From the sequence record JX128258: a stretch of 64,000 nt of DNA. The stretch is one strand, 5' to 3'. A program made the translations under genes and the position numbers. Numbering within the stretch: the first letter of the stretch is position 1; every line of letters starts with the position of its first letter. The stretch is from Escherichia phage ECML-117. Under the pieces are notes generated by a model, which was not told the DNA's origin, did no database searches, and saw only the letters and a program-made list of their open reading frames with translations. Shown one piece after another: positions 1 to 18,944 of this stretch.

Positions 1-116
1 GCATGACGCTGACCAGACTTTAATTCAATGGGTAAGTTTTGATAAAACTAGCGGCGGAAAGTATCGCTACTATGGCGACGAGCGATTCACCACTAAATTT
101 TATAAGGTACTCGACC

Positions 117-464
117 ATGGCTCATGTTAAAGATGAAACGCTGTATGGCGCAGAGATCAAGAAGCGTGTGCGTGAGATGGCTGAAGGCGGAACATTGCTA
201 CCGCCGCGAGTCCGCTGCGACCACGTGATTGGCGTATCCGGCACGAAGGAGATGGGCGTGTTGGTGAAAGACATTCGCGTTGGGGATGTCATGGTCATCG
301 ACCGACAAGCGCGAGTCGTTATCCAGGTGCAACCGAACGATGATGAAGGATGTGTCCTATTGAAGCTGAAGAAACTTTCATCCAGCCCAGCAAAGGCAGT
401 CATCAAGAAGGTCTGGCCAGAAGGATTACGCAAACTCATTCGTCGACCCGTGGAGAATGTGTGA
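117..464 (+). CDS. hypothetical early protein (about 115 aa)
   Basis: Track ORF 39..464; in-frame ATG at 117 preceded by AAGG; stop overlaps next start (TGATG). Start uncertain. Confidence 0.4.
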   Translation: MAHVKDETLYGAEIKKRVREMAEGGTLLPPRVRCDHVIGVSGTKEMGVLVKDIRVGDVMVIDRQARVVIQVQPNDDEGCVLLKLKKLSSSPAKAVIKKVWPEGLRKLIRRPVENV

Positions 465-700
465 TGGAAGATTATATTAACGCCATGTATATGGCATTCT
501 ATGTCGTTCAACTTCCCAATGGCGCGGTATTTTATGGCGAGTACACCTTTGACGTTCAATATGGCGTTTCAGAGCGTACAGTGTTAACAAGGGAGTTGAT
601 TGCGGACCTTAAGGACGACATCAAGCGCGTCGCGCGGCAGCAGTTCAATTTGGATGACACAGTCATCGTTCGTATAACCGGAATAACAGAGGTGCAGTAA
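464..700 (+). CDS. hypothetical early protein (78 aa)
   Basis: In frame with track ORF 350..700; ATG at 464 overlaps upstream stop; its stop overlaps next start (TAATG), suggesting translational coupling. Confidence 0.45.
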   Translation: MEDYINAMYMAFYVVQLPNGAVFYGEYTFDVQYGVSERTVLTRELIADLKDDIKRVARQQFNLDDTVIVRITGITEVQ

Positions 701-1029
701 TGACCCGTGATCAGATACTCGCCGCGCATGAGCGTGAAAAGGTCAAAGATATTTGTAAAAGGCACAAATCATTTGCCGATTCTTACGCCTTCTTAAAGTC
801 CTGCATCAAGCAAAATGCAAGGATGGATAACACTGTATTGACATTCAACCTTTTGTCTAACGGAGCAAAGCTTGATGCAATATGCGGCTGCAGATTTGCC
901 AGCGTGATGTTTGAAAGATGTGCTCACAAAGACTCTTTCTTCCATCAAGTCTCTCACCGGACGGGTGATACAAAGATAACAAGGACAAGGCACGAGATAG
1001 AGATTGACCTACTCCACTATGTAAAATGA
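700..1029 (+). CDS. hypothetical early protein (109 aa)
   Basis: Track ORF; start overlaps previous stop; same strand as neighbours. Confidence 0.5.
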   Translation: MTRDQILAAHEREKVKDICKRHKSFADSYAFLKSCIKQNARMDNTVLTFNLLSNGAKLDAICGCRFASVMFERCAHKDSFFHQVSHRTGDTKITRTRHEIEIDLLHYVK

Positions 1030-1053
1030 ATATCAAAAAGGTGAGCTAAATGC

Positions 1054-1082
1054 TTGCCTTTTCTTTTATCAATACTTATACT
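1054..1082 (+). promoter_or_regulatory. sigma70-like promoter (TTGCCT-N17-TATACT) in repeated cassette
   Basis: Hexamers read directly; the same about 80-bp cassette (AAAAAGGTGAGCTAAATGCTTGCCTTTT...TATACT) recurs at 2566-2640; precedes gene at 1115. Confidence 0.45.
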
Positions 1083-1114
1083 CTTTTCATCAAGACTAAC
1101 AAGCAAGGTGAATT

Positions 1115-1432
1115 ATGATTTACTTAGGCATCGACCAGGAACAAGACGAGCGGCTAGGAAGCGTGTTAAACGTAGAATTAAACACAGCTGTACACATCAA
1201 GCCTTGGCCAGAGGCGCACCCCGACGTAGTTGTACCCGTTGCACCTTGGACTCGTTACGTTGCCATTGACAATGATGGCCTTGTCCATTGTTACTCAGAA
1301 AAGCCGACATACTTCGAAAAGTATCACCAATGGCTTATGACTGGTTGGGCAAAGGTGCGATGCTGCGGCGAAGTCGGTCTGGAAGGCTGGAGCTTCAAGG
1401 CTAGTGAATCGTGTGTCGAGGTGCAATTATGA
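1115..1432 (+). CDS. hypothetical protein (105 aa)
   Basis: Track ORF; AAGGTG 7 nt upstream of ATG. Confidence 0.55.
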   Translation: MIYLGIDQEQDERLGSVLNVELNTAVHIKPWPEAHPDVVVPVAPWTRYVAIDNDGLVHCYSEKPTYFEKYHQWLMTGWAKVRCCGEVGLEGWSFKASESCVEVQL

Positions 1433-1647
1433 ATGCCGCGCTGGGTAAGCTGTCTTTCAACAAGCGCAATGAGTTGCGCATGGTGTCTCGTTTTCAATTT
1501 TTATTAAATGCTATGTCAAGCGTTGCCATAGCAATGCTTCGCGCTGATTGCCCTGCTGAAAAGCGTGAGACTTTATTCAAGCGTCACCAACAATTACGAA
1601 ATGCTGCTTATAAACTGCAGCAATATGCTATGGAGTATGCAAAATGA
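1429..1647 (+). CDS. hypothetical protein (72 aa)
   Basis: In frame with track ORF 1411..1647; ATG at 1429 overlaps upstream stop (ATGA). Confidence 0.45.
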   Translation: MNAALGKLSFNKRNELRMVSRFQFLLNAMSSVAIAMLRADCPAEKRETLFKRHQQLRNAAYKLQQYAMEYAK

Positions 1648-1928
1648 AGATGCAAAGATGTCCACATTGCTTGTCCACGATGCGGCTTACTGCTGAAGAA
1701 TATTTACATCACGTTAACGTTTGTGAGGCTAATCCTGAAAATTCGACGCGTTACTATTATCACTATCACGCAGAAGCGGAAGATGGATCAGGCGCAACAG
1801 GAATCGTTACCACGAAAGAAATGGTGATCACCAAAAAGGCGTATGAAAGCCTGCTGGATACAATCAAGGAAGTGTCTGGCAAAGAAATAGTCTGCATTAA
1901 ATCTTTATCTTTCTTGCACGAGGTGTGA
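1644..1928 (+). CDS. small C2HC zinc-finger-like protein (94 aa)
   Basis: Track ORF; N-terminal RCPHC...H...C motif; paralogous to the next gene. Confidence 0.5.
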   Translation: MKMQRCPHCLSTMRLTAEEYLHHVNVCEANPENSTRYYYHYHAEAEDGSGATGIVTTKEMVITKKAYESLLDTIKEVSGKEIVCIKSLSFLHEV

Positions 1929-1929
1929 A

Positions 1930-2307
1930 ATGAGAATGAAGCGTTGTCCGTATTGCCACGATGTGATGCATCTTCCGCATGAAGAGTTCGTGCAGCACAT
2001 GACTAATTGTGATAAGAATCCTAAGAGTGAAAGCCAGCTTGAAGAAAGAATGTTTCTGGTGTCATTCAAGTATTCAGCTTACGATGCACAGCCTGCTTAC
2101 GGTGCACCAAGTGCTGTTTACAGACCATTGAGAAGCGACATTGACTCAATGCAGCTTGCGGCCTGGATTAACGTTAAGGAAGGCATCACTCCGCACTTTA
2201 TCGCGCGCATCCAATCTCAGATTCTACAAATCAAGCGCGAATACAACCGTGACATCACTGAAGTGAAGGTGCTTTCCATTACGCCGATGAATAAGGAGTT
2301 GCCGTGA
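1930..2307 (+). CDS. small C2HC zinc-finger-like protein, paralog (125 aa)
   Basis: Track ORF; N-terminus MRMKRCPYCHDVMHLPHEEFVQHMTNC parallels MKMQRCPHCLSTMRLTAEEYLHHVNVC of the previous gene. Confidence 0.5.
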   Translation: MRMKRCPYCHDVMHLPHEEFVQHMTNCDKNPKSESQLEERMFLVSFKYSAYDAQPAYGAPSAVYRPLRSDIDSMQLAAWINVKEGITPHFIARIQSQILQIKREYNRDITEVKVLSITPMNKELP

Positions 2308-2564
2308 ACAAGGGTCCGATGACTAAGTTGGCCGTTGCCGCGCGGAAGCTTCGACAAGCCGTTAATGGGTCGCGGCCCGTGGTGTTGACACTCGACGACG
2401 CAAAGGCGCTGGTAGAGCTACTCGACGAGCACAACCGACGAAAGAATCTGGAGAACACATTACGCTGGCGCGTCACCCCAGCCGGGCGGGAGAGCGAGAA
2501 GAAAGCTTACTTGCGACGCAAACTAATGTCAGTCGGCCTTCACGAAGAGGCGAAGAAGATTTGA
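2304..2564 (+). CDS. hypothetical protein (86 aa, GTG start)
   Basis: Track ORF; GTG start overlapping upstream stop. Confidence 0.4.
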   Translation: MNKGPMTKLAVAARKLRQAVNGSRPVVLTLDDAKALVELLDEHNRRKNLENTLRWRVTPAGRESEKKAYLRRKLMSVGLHEEAKKI

Positions 2565-2586
2565 TTCAAAAAGGTGAGCTAAATGC

Positions 2587-2614
2587 TTGCCTTTTTATTT
2601 GCCTGTATTATACT
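2587..2614 (+). promoter_or_regulatory. sigma70-like promoter (TTGCCT-N16-TATACT), second copy of cassette
   Basis: Near-identical to cassette at 1033-1082; precedes gene at 2643. Confidence 0.45.
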
Positions 2615-2642
2615 TGTTTCATCAAGCAAAGGAGAATTGATT

Positions 2643-2948
2643 ATGAGTACCGAAGCGATGAAGAAAAAGGTTTCGAATGCTTTGCAAGAAGCCGTGAACT
2701 GTGGTGCCATTAAAGAGTTCAAGGAGACTCAAGAAGGCGGTGAGCCAGTATTCTTCTTTAAGAATAAAAAGGACGGTGTTGCAGCAATCATGTTGTTAAA
2801 GAATAGTGATGACACATTTATCCTTTGCGTCGGAGGATATGACCTTATCGTTGATGATGTATTTATCAATTGTGCCGACGGTCTTAACCCTATGCTGACA
2901 TTTGAGCGTCGCACCATCCGTGTTGCAACGTTTGGAGGGAAGTTATGA
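2643..2948 (+). CDS. hypothetical protein (101 aa)
   Basis: In frame with track ORF 2583..2948; ATG at 2643 preceded by AAAGGAGA; N-terminal region similar to product of 3587..4099. Confidence 0.5.
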   Translation: MSTEAMKKKVSNALQEAVNCGAIKEFKETQEGGEPVFFFKNKKDGVAAIMLLKNSDDTFILCVGGYDLIVDDVFINCADGLNPMLTFERRTIRVATFGGKL

Positions 2949-3130
2949 GTACCGAAGTCCACAACGCATCAGCCTTGGTTAGCTTTTACCGTAACAAAGG
3001 CGTGTCGCTCGTTAAAACGCCGCAAGGGATGTTGTTCTTTGGCACGCGATTCCTGAAAGCATCGGAGCGTGAAACGCTGTCCAAGTTCGACCAGAAAACA
3101 TTGCACGCAGTTTGGAGAAGACAACAATGA
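2945..3130 (+). CDS. hypothetical protein (61 aa)
   Basis: Track ORF; start overlaps upstream stop. Confidence 0.4.
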   Translation: MSTEVHNASALVSFYRNKGVSLVKTPQGMLFFGTRFLKASERETLSKFDQKTLHAVWRRQQ

Positions 3131-3420
3131 GACTAAGCCTAGCGCAAATTCAAACATTGTACCGGATGGAAGACGGAACGCCATACATGCTGCGCGGCGA
3201 CCGCAAGAAGGCTTATGAAAAGCGGCCATCACTGTTTCACGACATCAATGCGCCATCAATCCCTGTCTTATTCCGGTTGGGCCTTGTTGATTGGGCGGCG
3301 CCAGGAGAGAAAGACCCGACGCGCTATTCATCCGTGGTGATGACAAAAGCAGGTCGCGCGGCATTAAAAGAGATTAAAGAAAATATGGCTGGAGGTAAAT
3401 ATTATGACATCAAATCTTAA
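3127..3420 (+). CDS. hypothetical protein (97 aa)
   Basis: In frame with track ORF 3112..3420; ATG at 3127 overlaps upstream stop. Confidence 0.4.
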   Translation: MRLSLAQIQTLYRMEDGTPYMLRGDRKKAYEKRPSLFHDINAPSIPVLFRLGLVDWAAPGEKDPTRYSSVVMTKAGRAALKEIKENMAGGKYYDIKS

Positions 3421-3568
3421 AGCCCGTTTATTATTCATCAAGCCGCATGTGCCATATAAGATTAGTAAGCGCACCTGGCTTAACATTTACAACCGCAGCG
3501 GCGACCGTTGTTTGTACAAGGCAAAGCGGCGCAAGAAGGTATATTCTTACACAACATCCATCAAATAA
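3404..3568 (+). CDS. small basic protein (54 aa), not in ORF track
   Basis: ATG at 3404 with GGAGGT 7 nt upstream; translation MTSNLKARLLFIKPHVPYKISKRTWLNIYNRSGDRCLYKAKRRKKVYSYTTSIK; below the track size cut-off. Confidence 0.4.
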   Translation: MTSNLKARLLFIKPHVPYKISKRTWLNIYNRSGDRCLYKAKRRKKVYSYTTSIK

Positions 3569-3586
3569 GACTAGGAGAAGAATAAA

Positions 3587-4099
3587 ATGAAAATCGAACA
3601 ACTCGAAGCAGTATTGGAAATGGCCGTAAAGGCAGGCGCAATCAAAAGCTATCGTCGCGAGAAGTCAGATAGCGATAAGGTGTTTTGTCGCAACTTCTAT
3701 ATCGTTGGCAACCTTAACGACCACTACACCATCGAGTGGTATACTAACGTGATGACCCTTAAGTCGCGCACCATGGAGCTTTGGTGTGATGACATCTGTC
3801 TTTCGAATACTCACCCAAGCTATGATGTCGCCCTGGCATTCTATCACGGAAGCCGTCAACCTGTCGCCCACATCGGTGAGAAGCATGAGCATCTTAAGGC
3901 ACGACCAGAGGAATCAATGGAAGGTTGGATTGAATGGGCTGGCGGAAAGAATCCGGTGCCTGGTAAGATGGTCGAATACAGGCTGCGCAATGAAGGGGAT
4001 AAAGTGCTGTCAAGACTCTCTGACCATCTGCACTGGGCCCATATAGGAGGACTAAAAGGTAGTGACATCATTGCTTATCGGGTCGTTAAGGAGGGATGA
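3587..4099 (+). CDS. hypothetical protein (170 aa)
   Basis: Track ORF; AGGAGAAG upstream; N-terminus resembles product of 2643..2948 (AVKAGAIKSY vs AVNCGAIKEF). Confidence 0.55.
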   Translation: MKIEQLEAVLEMAVKAGAIKSYRREKSDSDKVFCRNFYIVGNLNDHYTIEWYTNVMTLKSRTMELWCDDICLSNTHPSYDVALAFYHGSRQPVAHIGEKHEHLKARPEESMEGWIEWAGGKNPVPGKMVEYRLRNEGDKVLSRLSDHLHWAHIGGLKGSDIIAYRVVKEG

Positions 4100-4548
4100 T
4101 GGGTAAACGCCTTATCGCCGCTGGTTGGGCCATACCGAAGTGGGGTCATCGTGCGCATTACTTTGACGAAGGAGAAGTGCAAAGCCTTTGTGGTCGCGCA
4201 ACGTATTTCGGTGATGAGCGCGTCAGCGGCGATTATATCGACTCGCTTTTAGGCAAAGGTGATTGCAAGAAGTGTCAGAATATATTAAGGGATATTCTTA
4301 CGCAAAAAGGATTGCTTGAGCTTGATGAATCGGAAGAAGTAATTGAACTTAAGCTGGAAGCCAATCACCTTATTAATATGTTCAAGAACTATTACGCAAC
4401 TAATATGCGCTCAAAAATGAGCGAGGAAGTAATAGAAAAGGTGTTCACCTACAATCCGCTAAGGATGAATAAAACCAAATTGAAGAAGTTTAATATAATG
4501 TTAAGGAAAGAATTTAAAAGGCTAGGGGTGAAGAATTTTATATTTTAA
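4096..4548 (+). CDS. hypothetical protein (150 aa)
   Basis: Track ORF; start overlaps upstream stop. Confidence 0.5.
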   Translation: MMGKRLIAAGWAIPKWGHRAHYFDEGEVQSLCGRATYFGDERVSGDYIDSLLGKGDCKKCQNILRDILTQKGLLELDESEEVIELKLEANHLINMFKNYYATNMRSKMSEEVIEKVFTYNPLRMNKTKLKKFNIMLRKEFKRLGVKNFIF

Positions 4549-4566
4549 TAGTGATTAATGTTAAGA

Positions 4567-4590
4567 GGGCCGATTGGCCCTTTTTGTTTG
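4567..4590 (+). terminator. rho-independent terminator (GGGCC-gatt-GGCCC + T-tract)
   Basis: Hairpin and TTTTTGTTT read directly after the stop at 4548. Confidence 0.6.
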
Positions 4591-4874
4591 CCCGTGGGGT
4601 GTGAGTCTTTATTATCGGATAAAGCGATTGATTTGTGTAAATCTATTAGAGGATGGTGGGGAATGAGGATTGTGACGTGATTTGTGTGTCTTGAATATGT
4701 GTGCGGATTTGGAAGAATATTGTACTGTGGTGCTGTGGGATTGGAGAGGGAATCACTAGGTTTTGGGGCGTGTACCGTGGTGTGTGGGCCTGTAGGCTGC
4801 GCCGTCTCTGGGATTGCCGCCTGAAATTTAAAAGGAGATATAGTTAGCTGGCTAACCTTACGTATAGAATTTAA

Positions 4875-5162
4875 GCGTATAATGACGTAAGATTTGGACC
4901 TATCCGTAGTTCACTCCACACACTTCTATGGTGCGCCGCGACTGGGTTCAGTGGTACATCTTACGGATGATACGGATGATACGCGTCGCCGCTATACTTT
5001 ATACAACTTTGAAAAAAACAATTAACTCCATTTTGAATTAATTTAAATTAATTTTTTTCTACATCCTCATACTTATACTAAACTTATGTTTATACGTATT
5101 ATCCGTAAGATATAAGTAAAAACAAAGACTTGCGGCAATACGGATGATACGTCATGATACGC
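4875..5162. promoter_or_regulatory. iteron/AT-rich control element, copy A
   Basis: GCGTATAATGACGTA at 4875-4889; tandem 9-mers in CTTACGGATGATACGGATGATACGCGTCGCCGC at 4960-4992; AT-rich tract 4993-5100; inverted ATCCGTAAG at 5101; ACGGATGATACG at 5140-5151. Homologous to copy B at 20906-21180. Confidence 0.5.
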
Positions 5163-5389
5163 TTCAACCAGCCAGCAGCGGCTAAGTCATTGATTTGCAT
5201 AACAAGCGGCGAAAGGGATGGATTTCTTTTATACGTATCAAACAGTACACCACGCACCACGGTCCGCTATTCATTCAGCACTATGATTTGTGTACTTTTA
5301 CAGCCAATTTGAACATCAATCTGCACTTGAATATAATGTTCATTCATTGTATAATTCACACTATTAATTTGCACTATGGGATTTGCACT

Positions 5390-5863
5390 ATGAGTCAAGA
5401 TTATGTAGCAATGCCTGAAGACTTTGAAGACCCGCGATTTGCAGAGCATAATCAGGCATTATTCGATGAGTTCATTGACCTTGTTATTCAGGGCCATGAC
5501 ATGCGCGCAGCTTTTGCACTAGTATTTGGCATGGAGGTTGCGACCGATAACTACACTGGCCAGCGAATCCTCTGCACGCAACGCAATCCGTACTACAAGA
5601 TGCGCTACAAAAAGCGTATGGAAGAGATGCCATTGAAGGAATTGTGGAGTGTAAAGAGTTCCATCCACAATTTAGTGAAGCTTGTGCGTGATCCAGAAGT
5701 CGCAGCATCAGCCAAGCTTAATGCCATTCGTGAACTGAATATCATCTACGGCATCACGATGATTGATGAGAATGGCAATAGTAAAATGGGCCGTTCCATG
5801 GACGATTTCTACAAGGATTTTGGAGAGGCAGCCAAAGAGGGTGAGCAATTCTCCCGCCACTAG
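5390..5863 (+). CDS. hypothetical protein (157 aa)
   Basis: In frame with track ORF 5195..5863; ATG at 5390 after two TATAAT-like boxes; the start codon overlaps a copy of the ATTTGCACTAT motif. Confidence 0.5.
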   Translation: MSQDYVAMPEDFEDPRFAEHNQALFDEFIDLVIQGHDMRAAFALVFGMEVATDNYTGQRILCTQRNPYYKMRYKKRMEEMPLKELWSVKSSIHNLVKLVRDPEVAASAKLNAIRELNIIYGITMIDENGNSKMGRSMDDFYKDFGEAAKEGEQFSRH

Positions 5864-5882
5864 CCAATTTGCACTATAAAAC

Positions 5883-5916
5883 GGCCCTAGAACACATTTT
5901 CTCCACTTCTAGGGCC
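5883..5916. other. perfect 10-bp stem-loop (GGCCCTAGAA-N14-TTCTAGGGCC)
   Basis: Read directly; lies 20 nt after the stop at 5863; no clear T-tract on the plus strand. Confidence 0.5.
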
Positions 5917-6261
5917 ATCGGTAATACGACGGGGAAGGTTACAACCATAAACGCTTTAGAAAGTGTATTATTATAAGTCATCTTTTAGTCACTTTACGTA
6001 ACAATTTACGACCTTCCGCCGTCCAGTCGAACGACTCCACCAGCAGATTTGCACTATAACCTAAGACGATGCGCCCTTTCTCGTTATCGACCCGCCAACA
6101 AGTCTCGAATAGCATTCGATTTGCACTATTAACTATCGCCGCAACGCGCGTTGGGTAAGCGCAATTTGCACTATGGTCGTAAAGGGATAAGGTGCGACCA
6201 CTTCCGATGGACAACGTAGCGATGAGAATAAGCGTATTCATAAGCCACCAATTTGCACTAT

Positions 6262-6284
6262 GAAAAGCGACCCCGAAGGGCCGC
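6262..6284 (-). terminator. putative rho-independent terminator for minus-strand gene 6292..6918
   Basis: Minus-strand GCGGCCC-ttcg-GGGTCGC hairpin (one mismatch) followed by TTTT. Confidence 0.4.
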
Positions 6285-6291
6285 CATTCGA

Positions 6292-6918
6292 TTAGATAAT
6301 CTGGAATGTGTAGGACTTGTTGCCGAACTCAAAGGTCAAGCGTCCAGCTTCTTTAAGCTTCATGCGGAAGCGAATGTGCTTGCTATCCGGTAATCCCAGC
6401 GCGGCGAACGCTACGCGGACCGATTTGAACTCGCCTACACCTTCGACCATGACGCCGTTACGGGTGAGACGCTTTTGCGCCACTTCCTTGTTATCCCAAC
6501 TTTTTGCAATACCTTCGCTATTCGAACGGCGATGGGAAGGACTGGCAATTTTATCCGCGCCAACCGGAGCATCATTCAGGCCGCTTTTAACGAAGGCTTC
6601 ATATTCTTCGTCGGTCATCGCGTCGAGTTCTTCCTGGGTCGGCTCCGCTTTTTTAACGACCGCACGCGCTTTGTGCGTTTTTACATCGCTGGACACTTCC
6701 TCGCGCGGCTTCGCGTCTGGGATGGGCGATTCGTTGGACGGCTCATCGAGCGCGTTTAAGGACTCGATTAACGCGATGACGCGAGTCTCAGCGGTGCGAC
6801 GGTCCGCAAACTTCTTAATCGGTTTTGAGCCGGAGTTAGCGTTATAGAATGCAACGAGGTCGGCGGTCTTAGTTGCGATAACGTCGCCGCTAGTAGAGAA
6901 ACGATTCAAGCTAACCAT
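6292..6918 (-). CDS. hypothetical protein (208 aa) with acidic central linker
   Basis: Track ORF; AGGAG upstream on minus strand; antisense plus-strand ORFs are Ser-rich and low-complexity; CpG-rich composition. Confidence 0.6.
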   Translation of the reverse strand: MVSLNRFSTSGDVIATKTADLVAFYNANSGSKPIKKFADRRTAETRVIALIESLNALDEPSNESPIPDAKPREEVSSDVKTHKARAVVKKAEPTQEELDAMTDEEYEAFVKSGLNDAPVGADKIASPSHRRSNSEGIAKSWDNKEVAQKRLTRNGVMVEGVGEFKSVRVAFAALGLPDSKHIRFRMKLKEAGRLTFEFGNKSYTFQII

Positions 6919-6987
6919 AATAAACTCCTAGTTTGGGAGCGGCGTTAACGACCTATTCGCTAACTCATCCCGTCCCGATATGAGTAC

Positions 6988-7015
6988 ATTATAATATAGT
7001 GTAGAAAAAAGTAAA
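6988..7015 (-). promoter_or_regulatory. sigma70-like promoter (TTTACT-N16-TATAAT) for 6292..6918
   Basis: Minus-strand read GTGCTTTACT...TATAATGTACTCATATCGGGACGGGATGAGTTAGCGAATAGGTCG is homologous to the plus-strand module upstream of 7554. Confidence 0.45.
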
Positions 7016-7059
7016 GCACTTTTTCGATAAAAATGCGATAAATTATTTTATCTTTTTTC

Positions 7060-7087
7060 TTTACTTCTTCGTACACTCGCGTATACT
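7060..7087 (+). promoter_or_regulatory. sigma70-like promoter (TTTACT-N16-TATACT) for 7144..7446
   Basis: CTTTACTTCTTCGTACACT shared with promoter at 7458; followed by TGTTTATATCGAGACGGG leader. Confidence 0.45.
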
Positions 7088-7143
7088 TGTTTATATCGAG
7101 ACGGGCGATGGCCCTTCCTTCTACTAGCATCGGGAGCTTTATT

Positions 7144-7446
7144 ATGACTACTTTAATCTCTTCCATCCTTACTTACGACGAAGACCGTTTAACCGTTCGC
7201 TCTCTTATCGCCGCCGTTAACGCGGAACTAGAATCTAGCGCCATTAAGGTCCGCGCGGTCGCCTTCATCGGCCTTTCCTTCGACGATATGAAGTACGCCG
7301 AACGTAGCGCCATCCGCTTCGCGAAGACCGACGACGAAGCCGTTACCCTTATCGAGACGGTTACGCCGCGCGGCGAAGCGTTAATTATCGTCGAGTATAT
7401 CGACGTAGAAGGCGATAAATCTTATAAACATTTTATCGCAGAATGA
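7144..7446 (+). CDS. small acidic protein (100 aa)
   Basis: In frame with track ORF 7087..7446; ATG at 7144 after GGGAG; codon usage rich in CpG, almost no CTG/CAG. Confidence 0.55.
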   Translation: MTTLISSILTYDEDRLTVRSLIAAVNAELESSAIKVRAVAFIGLSFDDMKYAERSAIRFAKTDDEAVTLIETVTPRGEALIIVEYIDVEGDKSYKHFIAE

Positions 7447-7457
7447 CGAAAAAGTGC

Positions 7458-7486
7458 TTTACTTCTTCGTACACTAAGACTATAAT
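7458..7486 (+). promoter_or_regulatory. sigma70-like promoter (TTTACT-N17-TATAAT) for 7554..7844
   Basis: Hexamers read directly; duplicated module of 7060-7087. Confidence 0.5.
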
Positions 7487-7508
7487 GTTTTATATCGAGA
7501 GGGGATGA

Positions 7509-7529
7509 GGTAGCGAATAGGTCGCTACC
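7509..7529 (+). other. leader stem-loop (GGTAGCGA-atagg-TCGCTACC) in 5' UTR
   Basis: 8-bp perfect stem between promoter and RBS; a related imperfect copy lies in the minus-strand leader of 6292..6918. Confidence 0.45.
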
Positions 7530-7553
7530 CTCCCGACTAACTAGGAGAATATT

Positions 7554-7844
7554 ATGATTACTTTAGCCGCTATCCGTTCCGCTCGCGTCGAAACTTCCGA
7601 AAACTCTAACGTATTTGGCGAAACCTTAGAGAGCGTTTATCTCTCTAACGTAGACGCAACTATCGAGTCTATTTATGAGCCGATCAACTTTCTCGACCTT
7701 TACAAGTATCGCGACGAGGACATCGTATCCTACCGCGTAACGATTAACGGCTTCGTTTATACGATCACCGAAATCGGCGGCGAATATATAGCTGTACCGC
7801 AACTCGGCGGCGAAGTAACTTACTTTAAAATCGTAAGCCTTTAA
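7554..7844 (+). CDS. small acidic protein (96 aa)
   Basis: Track ORF; AGGAGAA upstream; same unusual codon usage as 7144..7446; similar size and N-terminus (MITLAAI vs MTTLISSI). Confidence 0.6.
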   Translation: MITLAAIRSARVETSENSNVFGETLESVYLSNVDATIESIYEPINFLDLYKYRDEDIVSYRVTINGFVYTITEIGGEYIAVPQLGGEVTYFKIVSL

Positions 7845-7855
7845 GGAGAAGAAAG

Positions 7856-8065
7856 ATGACTAATATGAATAACTCTCTTAACGCGCGCGCCCATCGCACC
7901 GCCGTAATCGATATGTTTCGCGAGCTTAAGGAATTATGCGATAATATGAACGCGATGTTATCCATCGGCGGCTGGGGATACGAAGAAGAAGTTAAATACG
8001 CGGTTATGCGTCGCCGTCGCGATAACGTCCTTGGACAAATTAAACGCGCCGGATTATTCCTTTAA
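7856..8065 (+). CDS. hypothetical protein (69 aa)
   Basis: Track ORF; AAGGAGAAGAAAG upstream; same codon usage; followed by terminator. Confidence 0.55.
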   Translation: MTNMNNSLNARAHRTAVIDMFRELKELCDNMNAMLSIGGWGYEEEVKYAVMRRRRDNVLGQIKRAGLFL

Positions 8066-8091
8066 TTATAATCACCCACCGTTACTAATAG

Positions 8092-8116
8092 GCCGCGCTT
8101 AGTCGCGGCTTTTCTT
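8092..8116 (+). terminator. rho-independent terminator (GCCGCG-cttagt-CGCGGC + TTTTCTT)
   Basis: Read directly after the stop at 8065. Confidence 0.6.
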
Positions 8117-8586
8117 CGTCCCTATCTCAATGCGCTTCTCCGCGAAAATTCCTTTATCCTTCCCTTCGTCGTCGCATAATCTTCGTCGAGATGCTCCTTA
8201 GTTCGCATAACGGGTATTACGTTAAATGGAGAACATCGCGTAAGTCCTTGTTTTATATAGACACCTATATCGGACCGTTAAGGCGGGTCGCGTAAGTCGT
8301 TGTTTTATAAAGGCGCAAAACTTTCCCTTCGTTCCGAACTAAAACGAGAAATATGCGGACCCTTCGCCCGAAAATAGTACGCATGCGAAATTACCGACAT
8401 CTAGAATAATCCCCGCCGATATTATCCTACACGCAATCATTAGCCTTCGAATCATTATGCTTCATATTATTATGCATCGAATCATTCGCTTTCGAATTGT
8501 AACGCTGGAAACTGTAACGGCGATTGATTATTGCGTTCGTGTGGTTTTTATGGCATGGGTCTTTTGGTGCGTTTTGGTACTTGATG

Positions 8587-8709
8587 AAATTTGCAGTACA
8601 CTAATCAAAATACGACACATTTGGTCCACTAACTTTTCAAAGAAAAAGTCCTAGACAGTACCGTACTATTTTGTGCCCACAGTAAATTTGCAGTACACTC
8701 CTGCGCGGC
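8587..8709 (+). repeat. two copies of 16-bp motif AAATTTGCAGTACACT
   Basis: Exact copies at 8587-8602 and 8694-8709; shares the ATTTGCA core with the 11-bp array at 5367-6261. Confidence 0.7.
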
Positions 8710-8767
8710 AGGCAAAGAAAGGGCCGCCACAGCGACCCACGATTCACGGTTAAATCAGCAACACCCA

Positions 8768-9178
8768 CTATTCGCTCTTATGGGCATCACCAAAGCCATC
8801 CGCAATCTGGCTGATCAATGATTCAATGGACACAGTTTTACCAATTGATCGAGCGGTAATAGCAAGCATATTATCAATCAAACCATGATTGGATGCATAT
8901 GGTCCAGGTTTTGAATCATCTTCAGGACAGCCAAAAAGCTGGTCGCGCAAACTTTCGAGAGAACGCTCAATATTTTCCAGCTTCTCTTCTAAATCAGATT
9001 GGCGACGTAAAACCCATGTTAAGTCTCGGTTGCCGACTTCCAACCCATCAGAATCGCAAGCTGGAACGTCAATTTTGATGCTGCCACCAAAGGCCATTCC
9101 GCTGCCTTTAGTATATGTGTTGTGAATAGAATCATTCTTATTTGACATATCATTACCTTTCATGAGGGTGATTAACAA
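8768..9178 (-). CDS. hypothetical protein (136 aa)
   Basis: Track ORF on minus strand; start may be an internal Met. Confidence 0.5.
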   Translation of the reverse strand: MLITLMKGNDMSNKNDSIHNTYTKGSGMAFGGSIKIDVPACDSDGLEVGNRDLTWVLRRQSDLEEKLENIERSLESLRDQLFGCPEDDSKPGPYASNHGLIDNMLAITARSIGKTVSIESLISQIADGFGDAHKSE

Positions 9179-9208
9179 TAACTATAATAAAGCCGCATAG
9201 CGCGGCAT

Positions 9209-9469
9209 TCAAATCGGTTTGTTAATTGTAACGATTGGATTCATCAATCGATACCAACTGTGCTGGGTCGCCGGATACGGTCGAGCCAATGATACCCATC
9301 TGCTGAAAGAACTCTGAATAAACTTCCTTCCAGTATCTACGCGCTGCTTTCTGAGCCTGCCTTTGCGCTTGAAGCTTTTACCTTGAAAGATGAAACGGTC
9401 GCTTGCCGCTCGATACTCCACCACACCTTCCAGCCATTGTAAGAACGCTACTGATTCATTCTGATTCAT
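9209..9469 (-). CDS. hypothetical protein (86 aa)
   Basis: Track ORF on minus strand. Confidence 0.4.
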   Translation of the reverse strand: MNQNESVAFLQWLEGVVEYRAASDRFIFQGKSFKRKGRLRKQRVDTGRKFIQSSFSRWVSLARPYPATQHSWYRLMNPIVTINKPI

Positions 9470-9476
9470 GTTAACC

Positions 9477-9932
9477 TCAATATTTTAATAAGAAAGCACC
9501 CAACCAACTTTCCTCAATCTCGCGGCCAGTAGCCACACGGTCGGTCTTTGCTATGGGTCTGGATTCGCCGCAAGGTAATCCGTCTTGCAGTTGTGTACTA
9601 TTGCCAATTCTCACCATGACCTTTCCATCAGGGTCGATATAAGCGCGACAACCCATGATTTCGAGTCGTTGTAGACACTGGCGAATCGTTTTCAGCCTTT
9701 CACCGGACCGGATAGAGCGCGGTCGCGACCGCTGACCGTTCTTATTCACTGTCCGCTTAACGACCGGAATCTCATTGGTGCGTTTCGCTTTCGGTCGGTA
9801 ATAGGCTTCTTCGCCAGGAGTCGCACCTGGCGTCAATTCACGCTTGAGCGCCTTTTCAATATCGATGATCATAATTATGCCGCAGCAGCGTGGATGATTA
9901 CGTAAACTATGCCAAATAGCGCGGCAATACAT
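9477..9932 (-). CDS. hypothetical basic protein (up to 151 aa)
   Basis: Track ORF; the Cys/His-rich N-terminal extension looks unnatural, so the start may be the internal Met at 9872. Confidence 0.45.
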   Translation of the reverse strand: MYCRAIWHSLRNHPRCCGIIMIIDIEKALKRELTPGATPGEEAYYRPKAKRTNEIPVVKRTVNKNGQRSRPRSIRSGERLKTIRQCLQRLEIMGCRAYIDPDGKVMVRIGNSTQLQDGLPCGESRPIAKTDRVATGREIEESWLGAFLLKY

Positions 9933-9965
9933 ACCGTGCCCCAGAATGCAAAGCGTCGTGACTCT

Positions 9966-10187
9966 TTATCCATTGTCCACCGCTCCAATATCCTTCAAGA
10001 ACTTGTGCAAGTCACCTTTCTTATTAAGCTTTTGCATAGTTTTGATATCATCAAGTGATATGCCTTGATCGCTTTGTTGTTTGTCAATGCAGACAATGCC
10101 GCCTTTCTTGGCCTTGATTGTCATGCCTTTGGCTTCAATACTTTTTACGAAATCGGACAATAATTTAATTTCCATAATACACCTCAC
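9966..10187 (-). CDS. hypothetical protein (73 aa)
   Basis: Track ORF on minus strand. Confidence 0.4.
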   Translation of the reverse strand: MRCIMEIKLLSDFVKSIEAKGMTIKAKKGGIVCIDKQQSDQGISLDDIKTMQKLNKKGDLHKFLKDIGAVDNG

Positions 10188-10256
10188 TTGTTAACGTATA
10201 ATGAGTATAACTTAATAGCGCATAAAGTAAAGGCGCTTTTCAGCGCCTTGAGTGAA

Positions 10257-12614
10257 TTATTTTGCTGCTTTCAGCGCGGCTATTTCTGCCTTTAGTTCAT
10301 CTATCTGATCCATCAATGCAAGAATTGCCTCGTGATGGAGTGCTGCTGCAACGCCAGAAGTGTTTACTGACTTTACGTCATCCAGAATTGACCCATCACG
10401 CAGGGTGACTGGTGATGATTTTGTTTCTGATACGGCTTCAGGGAAGTCTTTCTCTACGTCCTGCGCGATGAATCCGTATCCGATTGAGCCATTTGTCTCC
10501 AGGACCCATGTGACCCCTTTGATGTTTCTCATCTTGGAGAGCGGATTACTGATGCGCTCAATGTTGCTTTTAATTCTTTCGTCAGATGTGCTTCGCCATT
10601 CCTGGCATCTTGCTATGCCGTCAGCACCAAATAGATAAGAGGCACTGCTGCCAATGCCATTCAAAATGTTAAGTTGCGCACGGTCCAATGCTGTTGTGCC
10701 ACTTCTGACTCCGCCAAGCATCCAATTCCCGTCATACCAGTCGCCGCCAACGGAGTTTATATAGCCTCCTTCTGGCACATTCGCGTAGTTGATCATCCTG
10801 ATGGCATTTCTTTCTGAAGCTGCCACCCCGACTGAATTCAACGGTTGTGCAACGACATCCTTGGGCCTTACGTATGCGTCAATGTGTAATGCGCCGTCAG
10901 GCCTTAGTGTGCCAATTTGAGTCTCTGCGCTTGGGAAGTACAAAGTCCCAGCTTGGTTGAATGACCATTCTTGCACCCCATTAGATATCACCGCACCTTG
11001 TTCAGATGTTAATCCATCAATTTTTCCGTATGCCTGCAAGAATGCTTGATACGCAACGTTCGTGCCAATCTTATATTCAGATTTTACACTACCGCCTCTG
11101 ACAAGCGTTCCGGCTGCAGGTTTTACTGCGTCGCCGTTAATCACACTCCAAGAAGTATTCGCGGCAACAAATCCACCCGATGCACGAATCACCCAAACGC
11201 CAACAAAGTTGCGACCCATGATTTCGTCAGTTGCCGCTCCATAAATCGGGCTTGATCTGGATGCATCAATATTTATTGTATTGAGACGCCCCTCCACTGC
11301 CCCGCTTCCAACAGGTATGGTGTCGCCGCCGCCTTGGGGGTACAAATCGTTGTTTGTGTAAAAAGCACCTCGGACGGCTGTGCCAAAGATTTGCGCATAA
11401 GTGCCTGCCGATACACCAGCAGCTGAGCCTGTGATGTTTGGTGCAGCAGATTCAAATATTTGACCGTTCGCAGTGGAGTTGCCGCCATCACCGCGCCCGT
11501 AAAGCGCCCGTACAGAGCCTGTCTGGACACCGTTAAGGTCTGGGACACGGAATGTCGTTGTGCCGTTACCTGAAGAATATTTTGCACGTTTGAACTTATC
11601 CGCAAGCCAGTCGGCATCTGCGATGGGTGAAAGCATCTGCGCATACGCCCAAAGTTCAGGCCAGTCAGCACGGTTTAGCAATTGCCCGTCTGCAACGACT
11701 TCGTATGGCTGAATATATGATCTACTATTGCGAAGATGGAAATCGCCAACACCATAGTTCATGACACCGTTCATACTTGGGCCAACGGTGCCTGTGTTTA
11801 CTAAGTTTTCAACCCAACGCTTAGTCGCGGCATCATAATCATTTACAGGGTCGCCAGCGAGCGGCGTTGATCCTTGTGGACGGATGTTTAGCCACGCCTG
11901 AGCATTATCTGCAGAGCCTGTGCCGCCCATTGAAGTTGGAACGATGCTCTGATCAGCAACAGGGCCGAATCCGAAAGCAGTCTTCATTCCTTGAATGGTG
12001 GTCTGCCCAGTTCCGCCATTTGCAATTGGAATCGTGCTTTGCGTACTATACATTTGCACCCAATCCGACCAGGATGATGAGCCAGCATTGTATAGCCTTT
12101 GGTATATGGCGTTGATCCAATAAGGCGTATATCTTTGGACGCAGCTTTCTCCTGCGACGCCAGTATTGTAAACTTCAAGAATACCAGCTTGTGAGACTGG
12201 ATAGTTCAGCGCCGATGATGCACCAGCATTTGCTGATTGATGATATTGACCAAACCATGAACCAGTCAAGGCATTGAGATTTATTCCGTTAGGAATCTCT
12301 CCAAAGTTTCGGACAGTACCCGTCAAAGTTGCGGCAGTGGTTCGAATAGAAAGCATGTCGCCAGCCGCCCATGCACGCGCTGCAGTCCCTTCTTGTGCAC
12401 GCTGCACGGTCAGGACGTTTCCAACAACGGCTGTTACTGTGACGATTTCGAATTGGAGGCCTGTTGCAGCGTCGACGATTGTCGCCACTACACGCTCGTT
12501 TGCGCCCAAGGTCGGAAAGCCCGACCCTGAGCGAATTGTGATTGTGGTGTCTGAAGTCGTCGTTGGTTGAGCCAGCGCGACCTCAAAGTTGTTTTTGAAT
12601 ATTAGCCTTGGCAT
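10257..12614 (-). CDS. tail spike/fibre protein with C-terminal intramolecular chaperone (S74-type autoproteolytic) domain
   Basis: 785 aa; Gly/Ser/Thr/Asn-rich fibrous body; C-terminal segment containing SDERIKSNIE and a terminal coiled coil, as in endosialidase-type chaperone domains. Confidence 0.7.
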   Translation of the reverse strand: MPRLIFKNNFEVALAQPTTTSDTTITIRSGSGFPTLGANERVVATIVDAATGLQFEIVTVTAVVGNVLTVQRAQEGTAARAWAAGDMLSIRTTAATLTGTVRNFGEIPNGINLNALTGSWFGQYHQSANAGASSALNYPVSQAGILEVYNTGVAGESCVQRYTPYWINAIYQRLYNAGSSSWSDWVQMYSTQSTIPIANGGTGQTTIQGMKTAFGFGPVADQSIVPTSMGGTGSADNAQAWLNIRPQGSTPLAGDPVNDYDAATKRWVENLVNTGTVGPSMNGVMNYGVGDFHLRNSRSYIQPYEVVADGQLLNRADWPELWAYAQMLSPIADADWLADKFKRAKYSSGNGTTTFRVPDLNGVQTGSVRALYGRGDGGNSTANGQIFESAAPNITGSAAGVSAGTYAQIFGTAVRGAFYTNNDLYPQGGGDTIPVGSGAVEGRLNTINIDASRSSPIYGAATDEIMGRNFVGVWVIRASGGFVAANTSWSVINGDAVKPAAGTLVRGGSVKSEYKIGTNVAYQAFLQAYGKIDGLTSEQGAVISNGVQEWSFNQAGTLYFPSAETQIGTLRPDGALHIDAYVRPKDVVAQPLNSVGVAASERNAIRMINYANVPEGGYINSVGGDWYDGNWMLGGVRSGTTALDRAQLNILNGIGSSASYLFGADGIARCQEWRSTSDERIKSNIERISNPLSKMRNIKGVTWVLETNGSIGYGFIAQDVEKDFPEAVSETKSSPVTLRDGSILDDVKSVNTSGVAAALHHEAILALMDQIDELKAEIAALKAAK

Positions 12615-12652
12615 TTTACGGTCCTCGTTTTGTCGACAACCGTATTATAACC

Positions 12653-12994
12653 TTAATTTCTTTTGAGAGGAATATGACGGTGGCTGCCATTATCTGGTTT
12701 AATAATGAGCATAAAAACGATTAGAAAGATGATGGCTGATATACTTAATTCAATCAGCGCGGCCTGAGATATGGATTGATCTTCGTGATACTGCTTTTGC
12801 ATTTCTGCTTTCTTCTGAGCGCAAACTTCAGGCGATATATAATCACCTTTTGAGTTGCCATAATAAATCTCGCCATTCTCAGAAATAAGTCTGCCGCAAA
12901 TATCCGTATCGGCCTTTGCGCTTGACATCATAATAACAGTGCCGATGATAGCAGCAATTGTCCAGATTAGCAGTTGTGATAAAGTATTGTTCAT
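12653..12994 (-). CDS. membrane/secreted protein (113 aa)
   Basis: In frame with track ORF 12653..13084; start at MNNTLSQLLIWTIAAIIGTVIMMSSAKA (signal-like) with a C-terminal hydrophobic segment. Confidence 0.45.
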   Translation of the reverse strand: MNNTLSQLLIWTIAAIIGTVIMMSSAKADTDICGRLISENGEIYYGNSKGDYISPEVCAQKKAEMQKQYHEDQSISQAALIELSISAIIFLIVFMLIIKPDNGSHRHIPLKRN

Positions 12995-13190
12995 GATAAC
13001 CTCTTTAAATTCCCTTCCCATATCGGGAAGGGCGAATGTTATTTTACGCGAAAGAATAGGCGCGTGCCACACAGCGAGTCCCAACGGCCCTCACCATCCC
13101 ATATCGACCCAACACCAGCGGTGATTGGGCCAGCAGAATTGGCGGCATTGGCCCAGGCGAGACGTTTCAACTTCCAACTGCACCAACGAT

Positions 13191-13454
13191 TCACAGTTCA
13201 CCTCCAGATTGCAAAACAAGTCCCGCATAGAGGATTGCTAAAGCTAAAGGCGCACCACTTCCAGCTTCTCTATTCTCTTTGATTTGAAGAGTGTCCTTAA
13301 GGAATTGCAGCTGAACGTTGAATTCATTTTCAATTCCAAGCACTCCAGCTAATTCTTTTACAGAATCTGCATATGCCTTGTCTAGCACTTCTTTTGGTAC
13401 TGTTAAAGTCAATTCATTTGCCATTTTCTTTCCACTCCACAAATGTGCTGCCAC
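13191..13454 (-). CDS. hypothetical protein (87 aa)
   Basis: Track ORF on minus strand. Confidence 0.4.
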   Translation of the reverse strand: MAAHLWSGKKMANELTLTVPKEVLDKAYADSVKELAGVLGIENEFNVQLQFLKDTLQIKENREAGSGAPLALAILYAGLVLQSGGEL

Positions 13455-13635
13455 TTGTTTCTCTATTTAGCAGGTATCTGCCGCGCATTCCATGAAGGCT
13501 GAATTCAACCGTCGATGGATTAGATTTTGAAAGCCACATCGCTTGACCGTCGAATGGTCCGCCAACGCATGTGTATTTGGCTTTTGGCTCACTCCTTTTG
13601 GGCCGTTTTGCCCGCTCTTTGATTGATAGTCTCAT
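13414..13635 (-). CDS. hypothetical protein (73 aa)
   Basis: Track ORF on minus strand. Confidence 0.35.
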   Translation of the reverse strand: MRLSIKERAKRPKRSEPKAKYTCVGGPFDGQAMWLSKSNPSTVEFSLHGMRGRYLLNRETSGSTFVEWKENGK

Positions 13636-13850
13636 CAGTCTTCACCTTGAGATTCAAGACAAGTAAGAACAAGCCATGTCATCGGAAGAATCAAAACCAG
13701 AGAAATAAGGGACCAGATGGACCAGCACAAGATGACAGACTTGAATGTGTGAACGTCGCCAAACGCAGCAGTGAAACAAAATCCCATCACGAAAGCAAGC
13801 GCGGTGGAGTGGTTATCAATGGCTTTGATGGCACGGTCGATGAGTTTCAT
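13635..13850 (-). CDS. small membrane protein (71 aa)
   Basis: Track ORF; two hydrophobic segments. Confidence 0.4.
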   Translation of the reverse strand: MKLIDRAIKAIDNHSTALAFVMGFCFTAAFGDVHTFKSVILCWSIWSLISLVLILPMTWLVLTCLESQGED

Positions 13851-13939
13851 ATTACCTCCGGTTTTGAGTTAATATGATTATAACGCAGAGCTTCAGAAAG
13901 GCAAACTTTTTGTGAATTTATGCCGTCCATGGCAAATGA

Positions 13940-14170
13940 TTAGTGAGAAGACACGACTAATGTGCCGCTTCCTTTCGCGAAAATCTCAACACCTGGCGGG
14001 ATTGTGACCGTGCCAACCACTGCGATTCCGATCAACTTGTCATCGGCTTTTTCTTCGAAACAGATCTCTGCGCCACCGCCGCGAACTTGAATAAGTGCGC
14101 CTGATACGTTTTCAGCAACAGAAAGAACGGAAGTGTAAGATGGAGTGAGTTGAATATTTACTAGGGCCAT
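13940..14170 (-). CDS. hypothetical protein (76 aa)
   Basis: Track ORF on minus strand. Confidence 0.4.
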   Translation of the reverse strand: MALVNIQLTPSYTSVLSVAENVSGALIQVRGGGAEICFEEKADDKLIGIAVVGTVTIPPGVEIFAKGSGTLVVSSH

Positions 14171-14288
14171 GATTTACTCCTGATAAAAAAATGGCCAGAA
14201 AGAATCTGGCCGAAAAGATCACCCTTTATCCACTACTAAGCTGGAATCATAATTTTACTTGATATAGCTGTCGCAAGCAAACTATAAT

Positions 14289-15749: not shown

Positions 15750-15752
15750 CAA

Positions 15753-15992
15753 TTAAAGCATTCCGTGCTGAAGGTCGAGTTTTCTTGCGGCAAACGACCT
15801 GGCACGGAATCGCTTACCCGCCCTTACTGCCTGTCGAATCTTCTTTTGCAAACACTTACGATCAAAATCGTTGCGGTCGACGGCTTCGAGTAAATCACGA
15901 CGCAGAGCACCCAGTGTCGACTTTTCAGAGACTTCAACGCCCAGCGCCGCTGCAACGTCTTTCAAAACATCGAGTTCGGTTAAAGTTCTCAT
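15753..15992 (-). CDS. small protein with Rho-N/HeH-like helix motif (79 aa)
   Basis: Track ORF; AAGGGGA upstream on minus strand; N-terminus LTELDVLKDVAAALGVEVSEKSTLGALRRDLLEAV. Confidence 0.45.
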   Translation of the reverse strand: MRTLTELDVLKDVAAALGVEVSEKSTLGALRRDLLEAVDRNDFDRKCLQKKIRQAVRAGKRFRARSFAARKLDLQHGML

Positions 15993-16405: not shown

Positions 16406-16567
16406 TTCAATCTCCTTTCGTTTGGTTAACTAAAATATAACTCAAAATGATGCAAAAGCAAAATATTTTATGAACTATTTATGATCACCATACATATCAT
16501 TTGCTTACAAACACATGAATATTTATAATATAGATTGATTCCCTTTCACTGTCAGGTGGCGTTAACA

Positions 16568-18943: not shown

Positions 18944-18944
18944 T

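Follow-up and report, generated by a model that had tools for sequence, protein, structure and literature searches.

Repeated promoter–leader modules in the terminal repeat of a Wifcevirus coliphage as candidate immediate-early expression cassettes

RESULTS

Three modules stand ahead of divergent genes

We analyzed a 64,000-nt stretch of Escherichia phage ECML-117 (JX128258; the window), which carries three copies of a promoter–leader module, here called A, B and C. Module A (6916..7027, minus strand) stands ahead of a gene of 208 amino acids (aa; 6292..6918, minus). Modules B (7052..7146, plus) and C (7447..7556, plus) stand ahead of genes of 100 and 96 aa (7144..7446 and 7554..7844, both plus). 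Each module is predicted to drive the gene next to it. The window comes from a Wifcevirus E. coli myophage: megablast of 6200–8100 returned 27 phage records, and 27/27 were Wifcevirus-type E. coli or Shigella myophages with 90–97% identity. A sequence-only reading of this locus had given the same gene coordinates, which are correct, and had described the genes as an island. The genes are there, but they lie in the phage's direct terminal repeat. The Ro157lw record begins and ends with the same 3533 bp, which correspond to window 5030–8564. In Mansfield, an annotated relative, a PhageTerm-predicted direct terminal repeat of 3673 bp covers the equivalent stretch and would end near window 8700. 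Together these place a repeat of ~3.5 kb at about 5030..8564, with all three modules in its middle.

Pairwise local alignments of the modules were scored against 1000 dinucleotide shuffles. A and C were identical at 93/115 positions (z = 41), in an alignment that spans promoter, leader hairpin and ribosome-binding site. B and C shared 44 of 53 positions (z = 19), and A and B 36 of 49 (z = 4.8). Similarity exceeded the shuffled controls for all three pairs, so three copies do lie where they had been proposed, far beyond chance. The claim needs trimming for B, whose common part extends from the –35 to about +12 only, with a 14-nt gap at the position of the inner stem-loop. Exact copies of the 19-mer CTTTACTTCTTCGTACACT lie at 7059 and 7457, and one with 3 mismatches lies at 6998–7016 (minus), with 0.01 matches expected; ATCGRGASGGG has three exact copies in the window, where 0.07 would be expected.

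A combined module profile (nhmmer, 64 kb) found exactly three module sites, with E = 2e-24, 7e-18 (module A) and 4e-17. The next match, at 2576–2636 (plus, E = 0.047), has a promoter TTGCCT-17-TATACT followed by TGTTTCATCAAG and no hairpin; its start region is of the same type as those of the modules and of the jumbo-phage cassettes described below. The module was conserved in 12/12 Wifcevirus genomes examined. A 'fourth module' in WFC and Bas99 (record 3550–3561) was rejected as a 12-nt match with no promoter ahead of it.

Module anatomy

Modules A and C share one layout on opposite strands. In A, an A-tract and AAAGTGC (7016–7026) lead into a –35 element TTTACT (7010–7015) and a –10 element TATAAT (6988–6993). 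The predicted start, A 6979, is followed by a two-tier leader hairpin (~6935–6976, inner stem 6944–6964), a Shine–Dalgarno (SD) sequence TAGGAG (6925–6930) and the ATG (6916–6918). The corresponding parts of C are an A-tract and AAAGTGC (7449–7457), TTTACT (7458–7463), TATAAT (7481–7486), a predicted start at A 7494 (ATCGAGAGGG), a two-tier hairpin (7498–7538) whose inner stem pairs 7509–7516 with 7522–7529 around the loop AUAGG, TAGGAG (7542–7547) and the ATG (7554). Module B has TTTACT (7060–7065), TATACT (7082–7087), a predicted start at A 7095, an SD GGGAG (7132–7136) and its ATG at 7144. The GATGAG... stem-loop is found in A and C only; B has a short GGGC/GCCC hairpin (7100–7117) instead. 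Likewise, the ribosome-binding site AACTAGGAG belongs to A and C only. The stem-loop and ribosome-binding site assigned earlier to all three copies therefore hold for two of them.

Judged by hexamers and spacing, all three modules contain near-consensus sigma-70 promoters: TTTACT-16-TATAAT in A, TTTACT-16-TATACT in B and TTTACT-17-TATAAT in C, with hexamer scores of 10/12, 9/12 and 10/12, respectively. This agrees with the earlier placement of promoter-plus-leader units ahead of the divergent genes. A and C have an A-tract upstream of the –35. The start sequences ATCGAGAGGGG (C) and ATCGAGACGGG (B) lie 7 nt past the –10, and ATCGGGACGGG (A) lies 8 nt past it. Because of this 7–8 nt distance, and because of identity with the mapped start of T7 promoter A1, we predict that transcription starts at 7494, 7095 and 6979 (minus).

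In T7 A1, transcription is annotated to begin at the A of ATCGAGAGGGACACGGCGAATAGCC, 7 nt past the –10 of that promoter, and ATCGAGAGGG lies at the equal distance in C. Over the first 10 transcribed bases of A1 (AUCGAGAGGG), C matches at 10/10 positions, B at 9/10 and A, with an 8-nt discriminator, at 8/10. Also shared with A1 are the upstream A-tract, the 17-bp spacer, the 7-nt discriminator, the GCGAAUAG octamer after the start, a leader that folds into a nested 5' hairpin, and a location near the genome end. The leaders differ in what follows: that of T7 runs to ~400 nt, with processing ahead of gene 0.3, but here the hairpin is directly followed by the ribosome-binding site. Homology to T7 A1 over the whole sequence was rejected, since nhmmer comparisons with single sequences and with profiles were not significant, and the 10-nt start identity is kept as a lead only.

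Elements upstream of the promoters were also compared. The element AAAAAGTGCTTTACT is present in A and C, on opposite strands, and is missing from B. The sequence-only reading had seen a palindromic element, AAAGYRCTTT, overlapping the –35 boxes. This proved to be the same –35 flank of A and C; B lacks it, and the motif matches its own reverse complement at only 8/10 positions. A separate operator is thus not supported. Between the back-to-back promoters A and B, an AT-rich spacer (7016..7059) holds an inverted repeat GATAAAA..TTTTATC (7025–7053). With a further one at 7412–7439, such AT-rich GATAAA(A)..(T)TTTATC repeats are centred ~56–68 bp upstream of the predicted A, B and C starts. They may be UP-like elements or a binding site. 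A similar motif, CGATAAAT, lies upstream of Kylevirus promoters (record position ~2990).

Folding and covariation of the leaders

The C leader folds into a two-tier hairpin of –20 to –21 kcal/mol, with GGGA/UCCC under an 8-bp stem (GGUAGCGA/UCGCUACC) and the loop AUAGG. Its z-score was –3.4 when the hairpin segment was taken by itself and –2.3 when the leader was taken up to and including the start codon. The A leader has the same architecture (z = –1.3 to –1.7), and the B leader forms GGGC/GCCC only (z = +0.64). A structured leader in triplicate, as had been proposed, is thus not supported: folding bears out the hairpin of C, but the leader of B is a different one and folds no better than shuffled sequence. 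In all three module folds the SD is mostly unpaired. Counted from the predicted starts, the minimum-energy folds leave 3–5 nt (A, C) or 5–8 nt (B) unpaired at the 5' end. A C fold beginning at +2 costs 5 kcal/mol more than the minimum-energy fold.

Stem covariation was assessed in 12 distinct A and C leaders from 12 genomes. Across these leaders, 96/96 cells of the inner 8-bp stem were standard pairs. One pair changes from G-C to U-A, another appears as G-C, G.U and A-U, and a third as U-A and U.G, giving compensatory double changes at two inner-stem pairs (G-C/U-A and G-C/A-U). The G.U and U.G intermediates pair only on the strand transcribed from the adjacent promoter, minus for A and plus for C. 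In ECO71P1, GGGAG/CUCCC takes the place of the GGGC/GCCC hairpin of B. Sense-strand-only G.U pairing and the compensatory pairs point to an RNA structure on the sense strand, evidence that is supportive rather than conclusive because independent events are few. The sequence-only reading had suggested coordinated, possibly post-transcriptional control. A hairpin conserved in A and C with compensatory changes makes a role at the RNA level plausible; what does not follow is regulation, as opposed to constitutive strong early expression.

A protein that acts on these modules would give such regulation. It would bind the DNA elements (AAAGTGCTTTACT, the TACACT spacer or GATAAA..TTTATC) or the hairpin with its AAUAGG loop, and cause joint early shut-off or translational repression. 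This would suit the conservation, between copies and in Kylevirus, of spacer and upstream bases that are dispensable for sigma-70, as well as the invariance of the inner hairpin and loop in A and C. Moreover, a loop of the GAAUAG type is seen again in leaders of T7 A1 and Kylevirus, and the rightward unit ends in a 69-aa gene whose family is named 'transcriptional regulator'. Yet this regulator is present in 7 Wifcevirus records only and the modules in all of them; B has neither the AAAGTGC element nor the inner hairpin; and common descent with selection for promoter strength would explain the conservation between copies equally well. The binding protein, moreover, is hypothetical. We consider this explanation unlikely.

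The hairpins could instead be sites for RNase III or another endonuclease, which would cut a polycistronic early RNA, as between T7 early genes, and leave stabilizing hairpins behind. No terminator lies between 7446 and 7554, placing module C inside a predicted read-through transcript from B, as this explanation would have it, and the two-tier hairpin of A and C has an internal loop. The helix totals only ~13–15 bp, however, which is short for RNase III when judged by the R-sites of T7. Module A, first in its transcript, has the same hairpin, and the jumbo-phage versions are simple hairpins of 7–9 bp. Nor was there a match to an Rfam family: Rfam 15 gave no gathering-score match in the whole window and chance-level matches only in 6850–7650 at E up to 10. 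Processing of this kind therefore appears improbable.

Comparison with known cassettes and leaders

Of the kinds described so far, the nearest is the repeated early cassette of T4-type phages termed PeSL, for promoter-early stem-loop (sources: Arbiol et al. 2010, PMC2839356; Comeau et al. 2014, PMC4122927). In a PeSL, a strong sigma-70 promoter with AT-rich sequence upstream is combined with a G-tract/C-tract stem-loop, and the 3' end supplies SD and ATG; the stem-loop, which works as a terminator, overlaps the –10 or sits between it and the –35. PeSL border small genes whose function is unknown, and mediate shuffling (PMC2839356). Modules A–C are similar in being ~100-bp repeats with an AT-rich upstream part, a near-consensus sigma-70 early promoter, a G-tract/C-tract stem-loop, and SD and ATG at the 3' end. 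They also adjoin small genes without assigned function, in a variable region where three indel or duplication events have one junction at a module edge. Unlike PeSL, they have the stem-loop in the transcribed leader (+4 to +45 of the predicted transcript) and no U-tract. In addition, the phage is a PB1-like myovirus rather than T4-like, and there are three copies only, all in the terminal repeat.

Directly after the hairpins come CGACUAACUAGG, AAACUAGG and UUCUACUAGC, none of which has a U-run. A terminator scan found nothing at the leader stem-loops; its sole match within a module was a weak hairpin over the SD of A (6924–6940, minus). We therefore rejected the leader hairpin as an intrinsic terminator or attenuator. 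Membership of the modules in PeSL was rejected on the position of the stem-loop and the absent U-tract. By sequence, the modules resemble T4-type PeSL cassettes and depart from them in one defining respect, the position and terminator role of the stem-loop. Two composites just outside the repeat, each a sigma-70-like promoter with a terminator-type GC hairpin, fit the published PeSL layout better: 9184–9212 (minus), with the hairpin between –35 and –10 (GCCGCGCTATGCGGC), and 10204–10245 (minus), with the hairpin overlapping the –35 (GGCGCTGAAAAGCGCC-TTTACT).

Other leaders and early regions are alike in part. The 5' stabilizing stem-loops of the ompA 5' untranslated region and the T7 phi10 leader place a stable hairpin near the 5' end, followed by an unstructured ribosome-binding site. 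In the modules, the predicted hairpin begins 4–8 nt from the predicted 5' end, which is borderline for protection of that end, and a ribosome-binding site that is mostly unpaired in the folds comes after it. The pre-early genes of T5 and the host-takeover module of SPO1 combine strong host-type promoters with small early genes in a terminal repeat. The Wifcevirus repeat is much smaller; the likeness drawn here is one of layout, and the early timing of its genes is a prediction.

The same cassette in jumbo phages and Kylevirus

Sensitive blastn of module C revealed a 25-nt exact match, TATAATGTTTTATATCGAGAGGGGA, in Asteriusvirus-type jumbo phages (121Q, PBECO4 and K64-1 among them), whose modules have the same overall order. 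The Asteriusvirus vB_Ec-M-J has a terminal repeat of 21.5 kb, a 12-kb part of which holds 14 small genes, each with one module ahead of it. The order there is AAAAGTACTTGCA, a 17-bp spacer, TATAAT, GTTTTAYATCRAG(AG)GGGGA, a loop, UCCCC(UC), ACUAA, AGGA and ATG. A profile built from the 14 Asteriusvirus modules only recovered module C nearly full length (E = 1.6e-7) and module B (E = 8e-4), and matched no other sigma-70-like site in the window. One metagenomic jumbo-type module has TAACTAGGAGA in common with C.

At jumbo-type loci, a hairpin of at least 5 bp was found within +1 to +40 at 41/72 distinct promoter sites. These hairpins are simple stems of 7–9 bp, the 5' arm is always purine-rich, and compensatory stem variants occur (GGGGAGAA/UUCUCCCC, GAGGGGAA/UUCCCCUC and GUGGGGAA/UUCCCCAC). 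They differ from Wifcevirus A and C, which have the added 8-bp inner stem, and the jumbo –35 is TTGCAA/TTGACA versus TTTACT. A scan of IMG/VR with a specific pattern returned only Wifcevirus-sized contigs, Asteriusvirus-sized contigs and one 109-kb contig with jumbo-type modules. A looser pattern, TATNNT-N7-ATCGAGAGGG, was discarded as holding too little information, its 119+ matches being at chance level. In most terminal-repeat promoters of vB_Ec-M-J (7623–19647), AGTACT palindromes lie just upstream of the –35 (AAAGTACTTGCA) and the –10 (AGTACTGTATAAT).

In the Rak2-like phage CBB, RpoD-like promoters with UP-like elements precede short early genes, some of them in the terminal repeat; the account describes the promoters and mentions no leader stem-loop (PMC5259590). 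Wifcevirus resembles Rak2-like and Asteriusvirus phages in having a long terminal repeat with numerous small genes of unknown function that are each preceded by a sigma-70 promoter. In Kylevirus, four promoters in Pantoea phage PA1 are like those of Wifcevirus, (AAAGTG)CTTTACT...TATAATGTTTATATCGAAA, and most of them lack a GC hairpin; the adjacent PA1 protein is only 47% identical.

These likenesses allow a broader reading, which we put forward tentatively and with a low probability. The promoter–leader unit may belong to a family of horizontally exchanged immediate-early cassettes across the unrelated lineages Wifcevirus, Kylevirus and Asteriusvirus, with the T7 A1 start as another instance. 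The conserved AUCGAGAGGG start and the hairpin of purine and pyrimidine arms would then make up a functional RNA element that RNA polymerase or a host factor reads and that privileges the first genes entering the cell.

Duplication, gene loss and junctions around the modules

The 208-aa gene, which module A would drive in the window, belongs to phrog_4730 and is a core gene shared with Kylevirus and Pbunavirus; tblastn found it in 354 phage records. A terminator-like hairpin, GCGGCCC-UUCG-GGGUCGC then UUUUC (6262..6285, minus), follows it, and a terminator is annotated there in WFC. By tblastn, the 96-aa gene was confined to Wifcevirus, as was the 100-aa gene. The 69-aa accessory gene (7856..8065, plus; phrog_10377) ends the rightward unit, which is closed by an intrinsic terminator at 8090..8111 (plus) found in the scan and annotated at the equivalent site in Mansfield and WFC. 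Because its tblastn matches were in 7 Wifcevirus records only and otherwise in ~310 Klebsiella siphophages, at ~45% identity, the 69-aa gene was probably acquired horizontally. Sequence searches of the downstream proteins against Pfam, PHROGs and PDB gave no function beyond family names. The start of the Pbunavirus 14-1 record is not the equivalent region.

In Mansfield, WFC, Bas99, AV128 and others, an extra gene of 94–104 aa follows module A. Its 94-aa product in Mansfield is 32% identical to the 96-aa product of 7554..7844 (BLASTP, E = 1e-6). This paralogy indicates that A with its gene is an inverted duplicate of C with its gene, and the sequences thus identify A and C as relics of an inverted duplication of promoter, leader and gene. 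The extra gene is missing in the window and in Ro157lw, vB_Eco4M-7 and RCIP0319, where the A leader is joined straight to the 208-aa gene. The junction of this indel (gp005) lies at the SD of A, within a shared TAGGAGTTTA.

Such a history raises the question of whether the modules are neutral leftovers of a recent duplication, with a functionless leader. A and C clearly do derive from a duplication that included the downstream gene. But the paralogous proteins have fallen to 32% identity while A and C have kept 81% nucleotide identity, which argues for selection on promoter and leader. Every stem substitution preserves pairing, and unrelated jumbo phages have the same design. Neutrality therefore seems very improbable.

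Two further events have a junction at module C. AV128-type genomes have a 50-aa open reading frame, flanked by a direct repeat AAAATAACGAAAA(A)G, at the upstream edge of C. F13 has a 303-bp tandem duplication (record 3119–3520) that covers the 3' part of the 100-aa gene and module C and ends at the 3' end of C, giving two tandem copies of this module. In all three indel or duplication events, one junction lies at a module edge with 10–15 nt of microhomology, and there is no exchange between two full cassettes. The region may behave as a small zone of variation, with genes gained and lost at junctions that the module edges provide.

The same events bear on whether the modules work as PeSL-type cassettes do, with stem-loops that terminate or attenuate upstream transcription and repeats that serve chiefly as recombination substrates for the shuffling of small genes. 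Three events that break at a module edge, and variable gene content between the modules, would be expected in that case; the design is similar to that of T4-type cassettes (PMC2839356), and the composites at 9184–9212 and 10204–10245 are true promoter/terminator composites nearby. However, the hairpins of A–C lie downstream of the –10 and the predicted start, they lack a U-tract and a terminator-scan match, and the breakpoints involve microhomologies at the edges, not exchange of whole modules. We doubt this explanation.

Other repeats were seen in and near the terminal repeat. ATTTGCA[CG]TA has nine plus-strand copies in a single orientation (5367, 5381, 5867, 6047, 6119, 6164, 6251, 8589 and 8686), with 0.08 expected for the 11-mer. 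The copies are within the terminal repeat, those at 8589 and 8686 lying at or just past its right edge, depending on the boundary estimate. They could be candidate packaging, replication or phage-specific promoter sites. Across the right boundary of the repeat, ~650 bp (8112–8767) has no convincing gene, and inside this gene-poor stretch are direct repeats TCGCGTAAGTCNTTGTTTTATA at 8236 and 8288.

DISCUSSION

Our preferred interpretation, to which we give a probability of roughly 60%, is that A, B and C are immediate-early promoters for host RNA polymerase (sigma-70) in the terminal repeat, each packaged with its own leader and SD as a self-contained cassette. We infer that these promoters are strong and act early, and that the hairpin helps to protect the 5' end and to insulate the ribosome-binding site. 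Transcription would start at the A of ATCGRGASGGG (6979 on the minus strand, 7095 and 7494), where the purine-rich start sequence may favour productive initiation. The C/U-rich tract downstream would pair with the start sequence to form a GC-rich hairpin 4–9 nt from the 5' end, on top of which A and C would carry the extra 8-bp inner stem. This hairpin would not be a terminator. Rather, it probably shields the 5' end from decay, and probably keeps the SD-like G-tract from disturbing the true ribosome-binding site, which is unstructured. In the window, the gene beside A would have been lost via TAGGAGTTTA microhomology, fusing the A leader to the 208-aa core gene. As a secondary role, module edges would act as junctions for gene gain and loss.

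Several observations weigh against the interpretation of A–C as immediate-early cassettes with a working hairpin. The papers on Wifcevirus phages that were searched hold no promoter, transcript, start-site or half-life data for the module region. Neither A (z = –1.3) nor B (z = +0.64) folds more stably than shuffled sequence, and the covariation amounts to ~4–5 substitution events among closely related sequences. In the minimum-energy folds, the hairpin begins 4–8 nt from the predicted 5' end. Classical work on 5' stabilizers puts this distance at or past the limit of protection, so the offset weighs against 5'-end protection. The hairpin is also unnecessary for promoter activity, as several Kylevirus promoters of the same family lack the GC hairpin. 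Finally, nhmmer with T7 A1 did not find the modules in the window, and the module profiles reached at best E = 7, at the A1 start, in T7 positions 1–8000.

The modules may be viewed as a variant of repeated early promoter cassettes, and as such are largely ordinary. Two features appear modestly surprising: the covarying leader hairpin, and the near-identity to cassettes of unrelated jumbo coliphages, along with the start sequence of T7 A1. Very fast replication is reported for Wifcevirus phages, whose mode of host takeover is unknown (PMC11990801). For these phages, the cassettes mark probable immediate-early genes and offer three predicted start sites and one hairpin for study. If the hairpin is inert, they would be three ordinary early promoters only. 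The near-identity to the modules of jumbo phages, which belong to a different family, suggests either that regulatory cassettes move between coliphages or that very strong early expression in E. coli has a single preferred solution. Either of these, if true, would aid the annotation of early regions in newly found phages as well as the design of compact expression parts.

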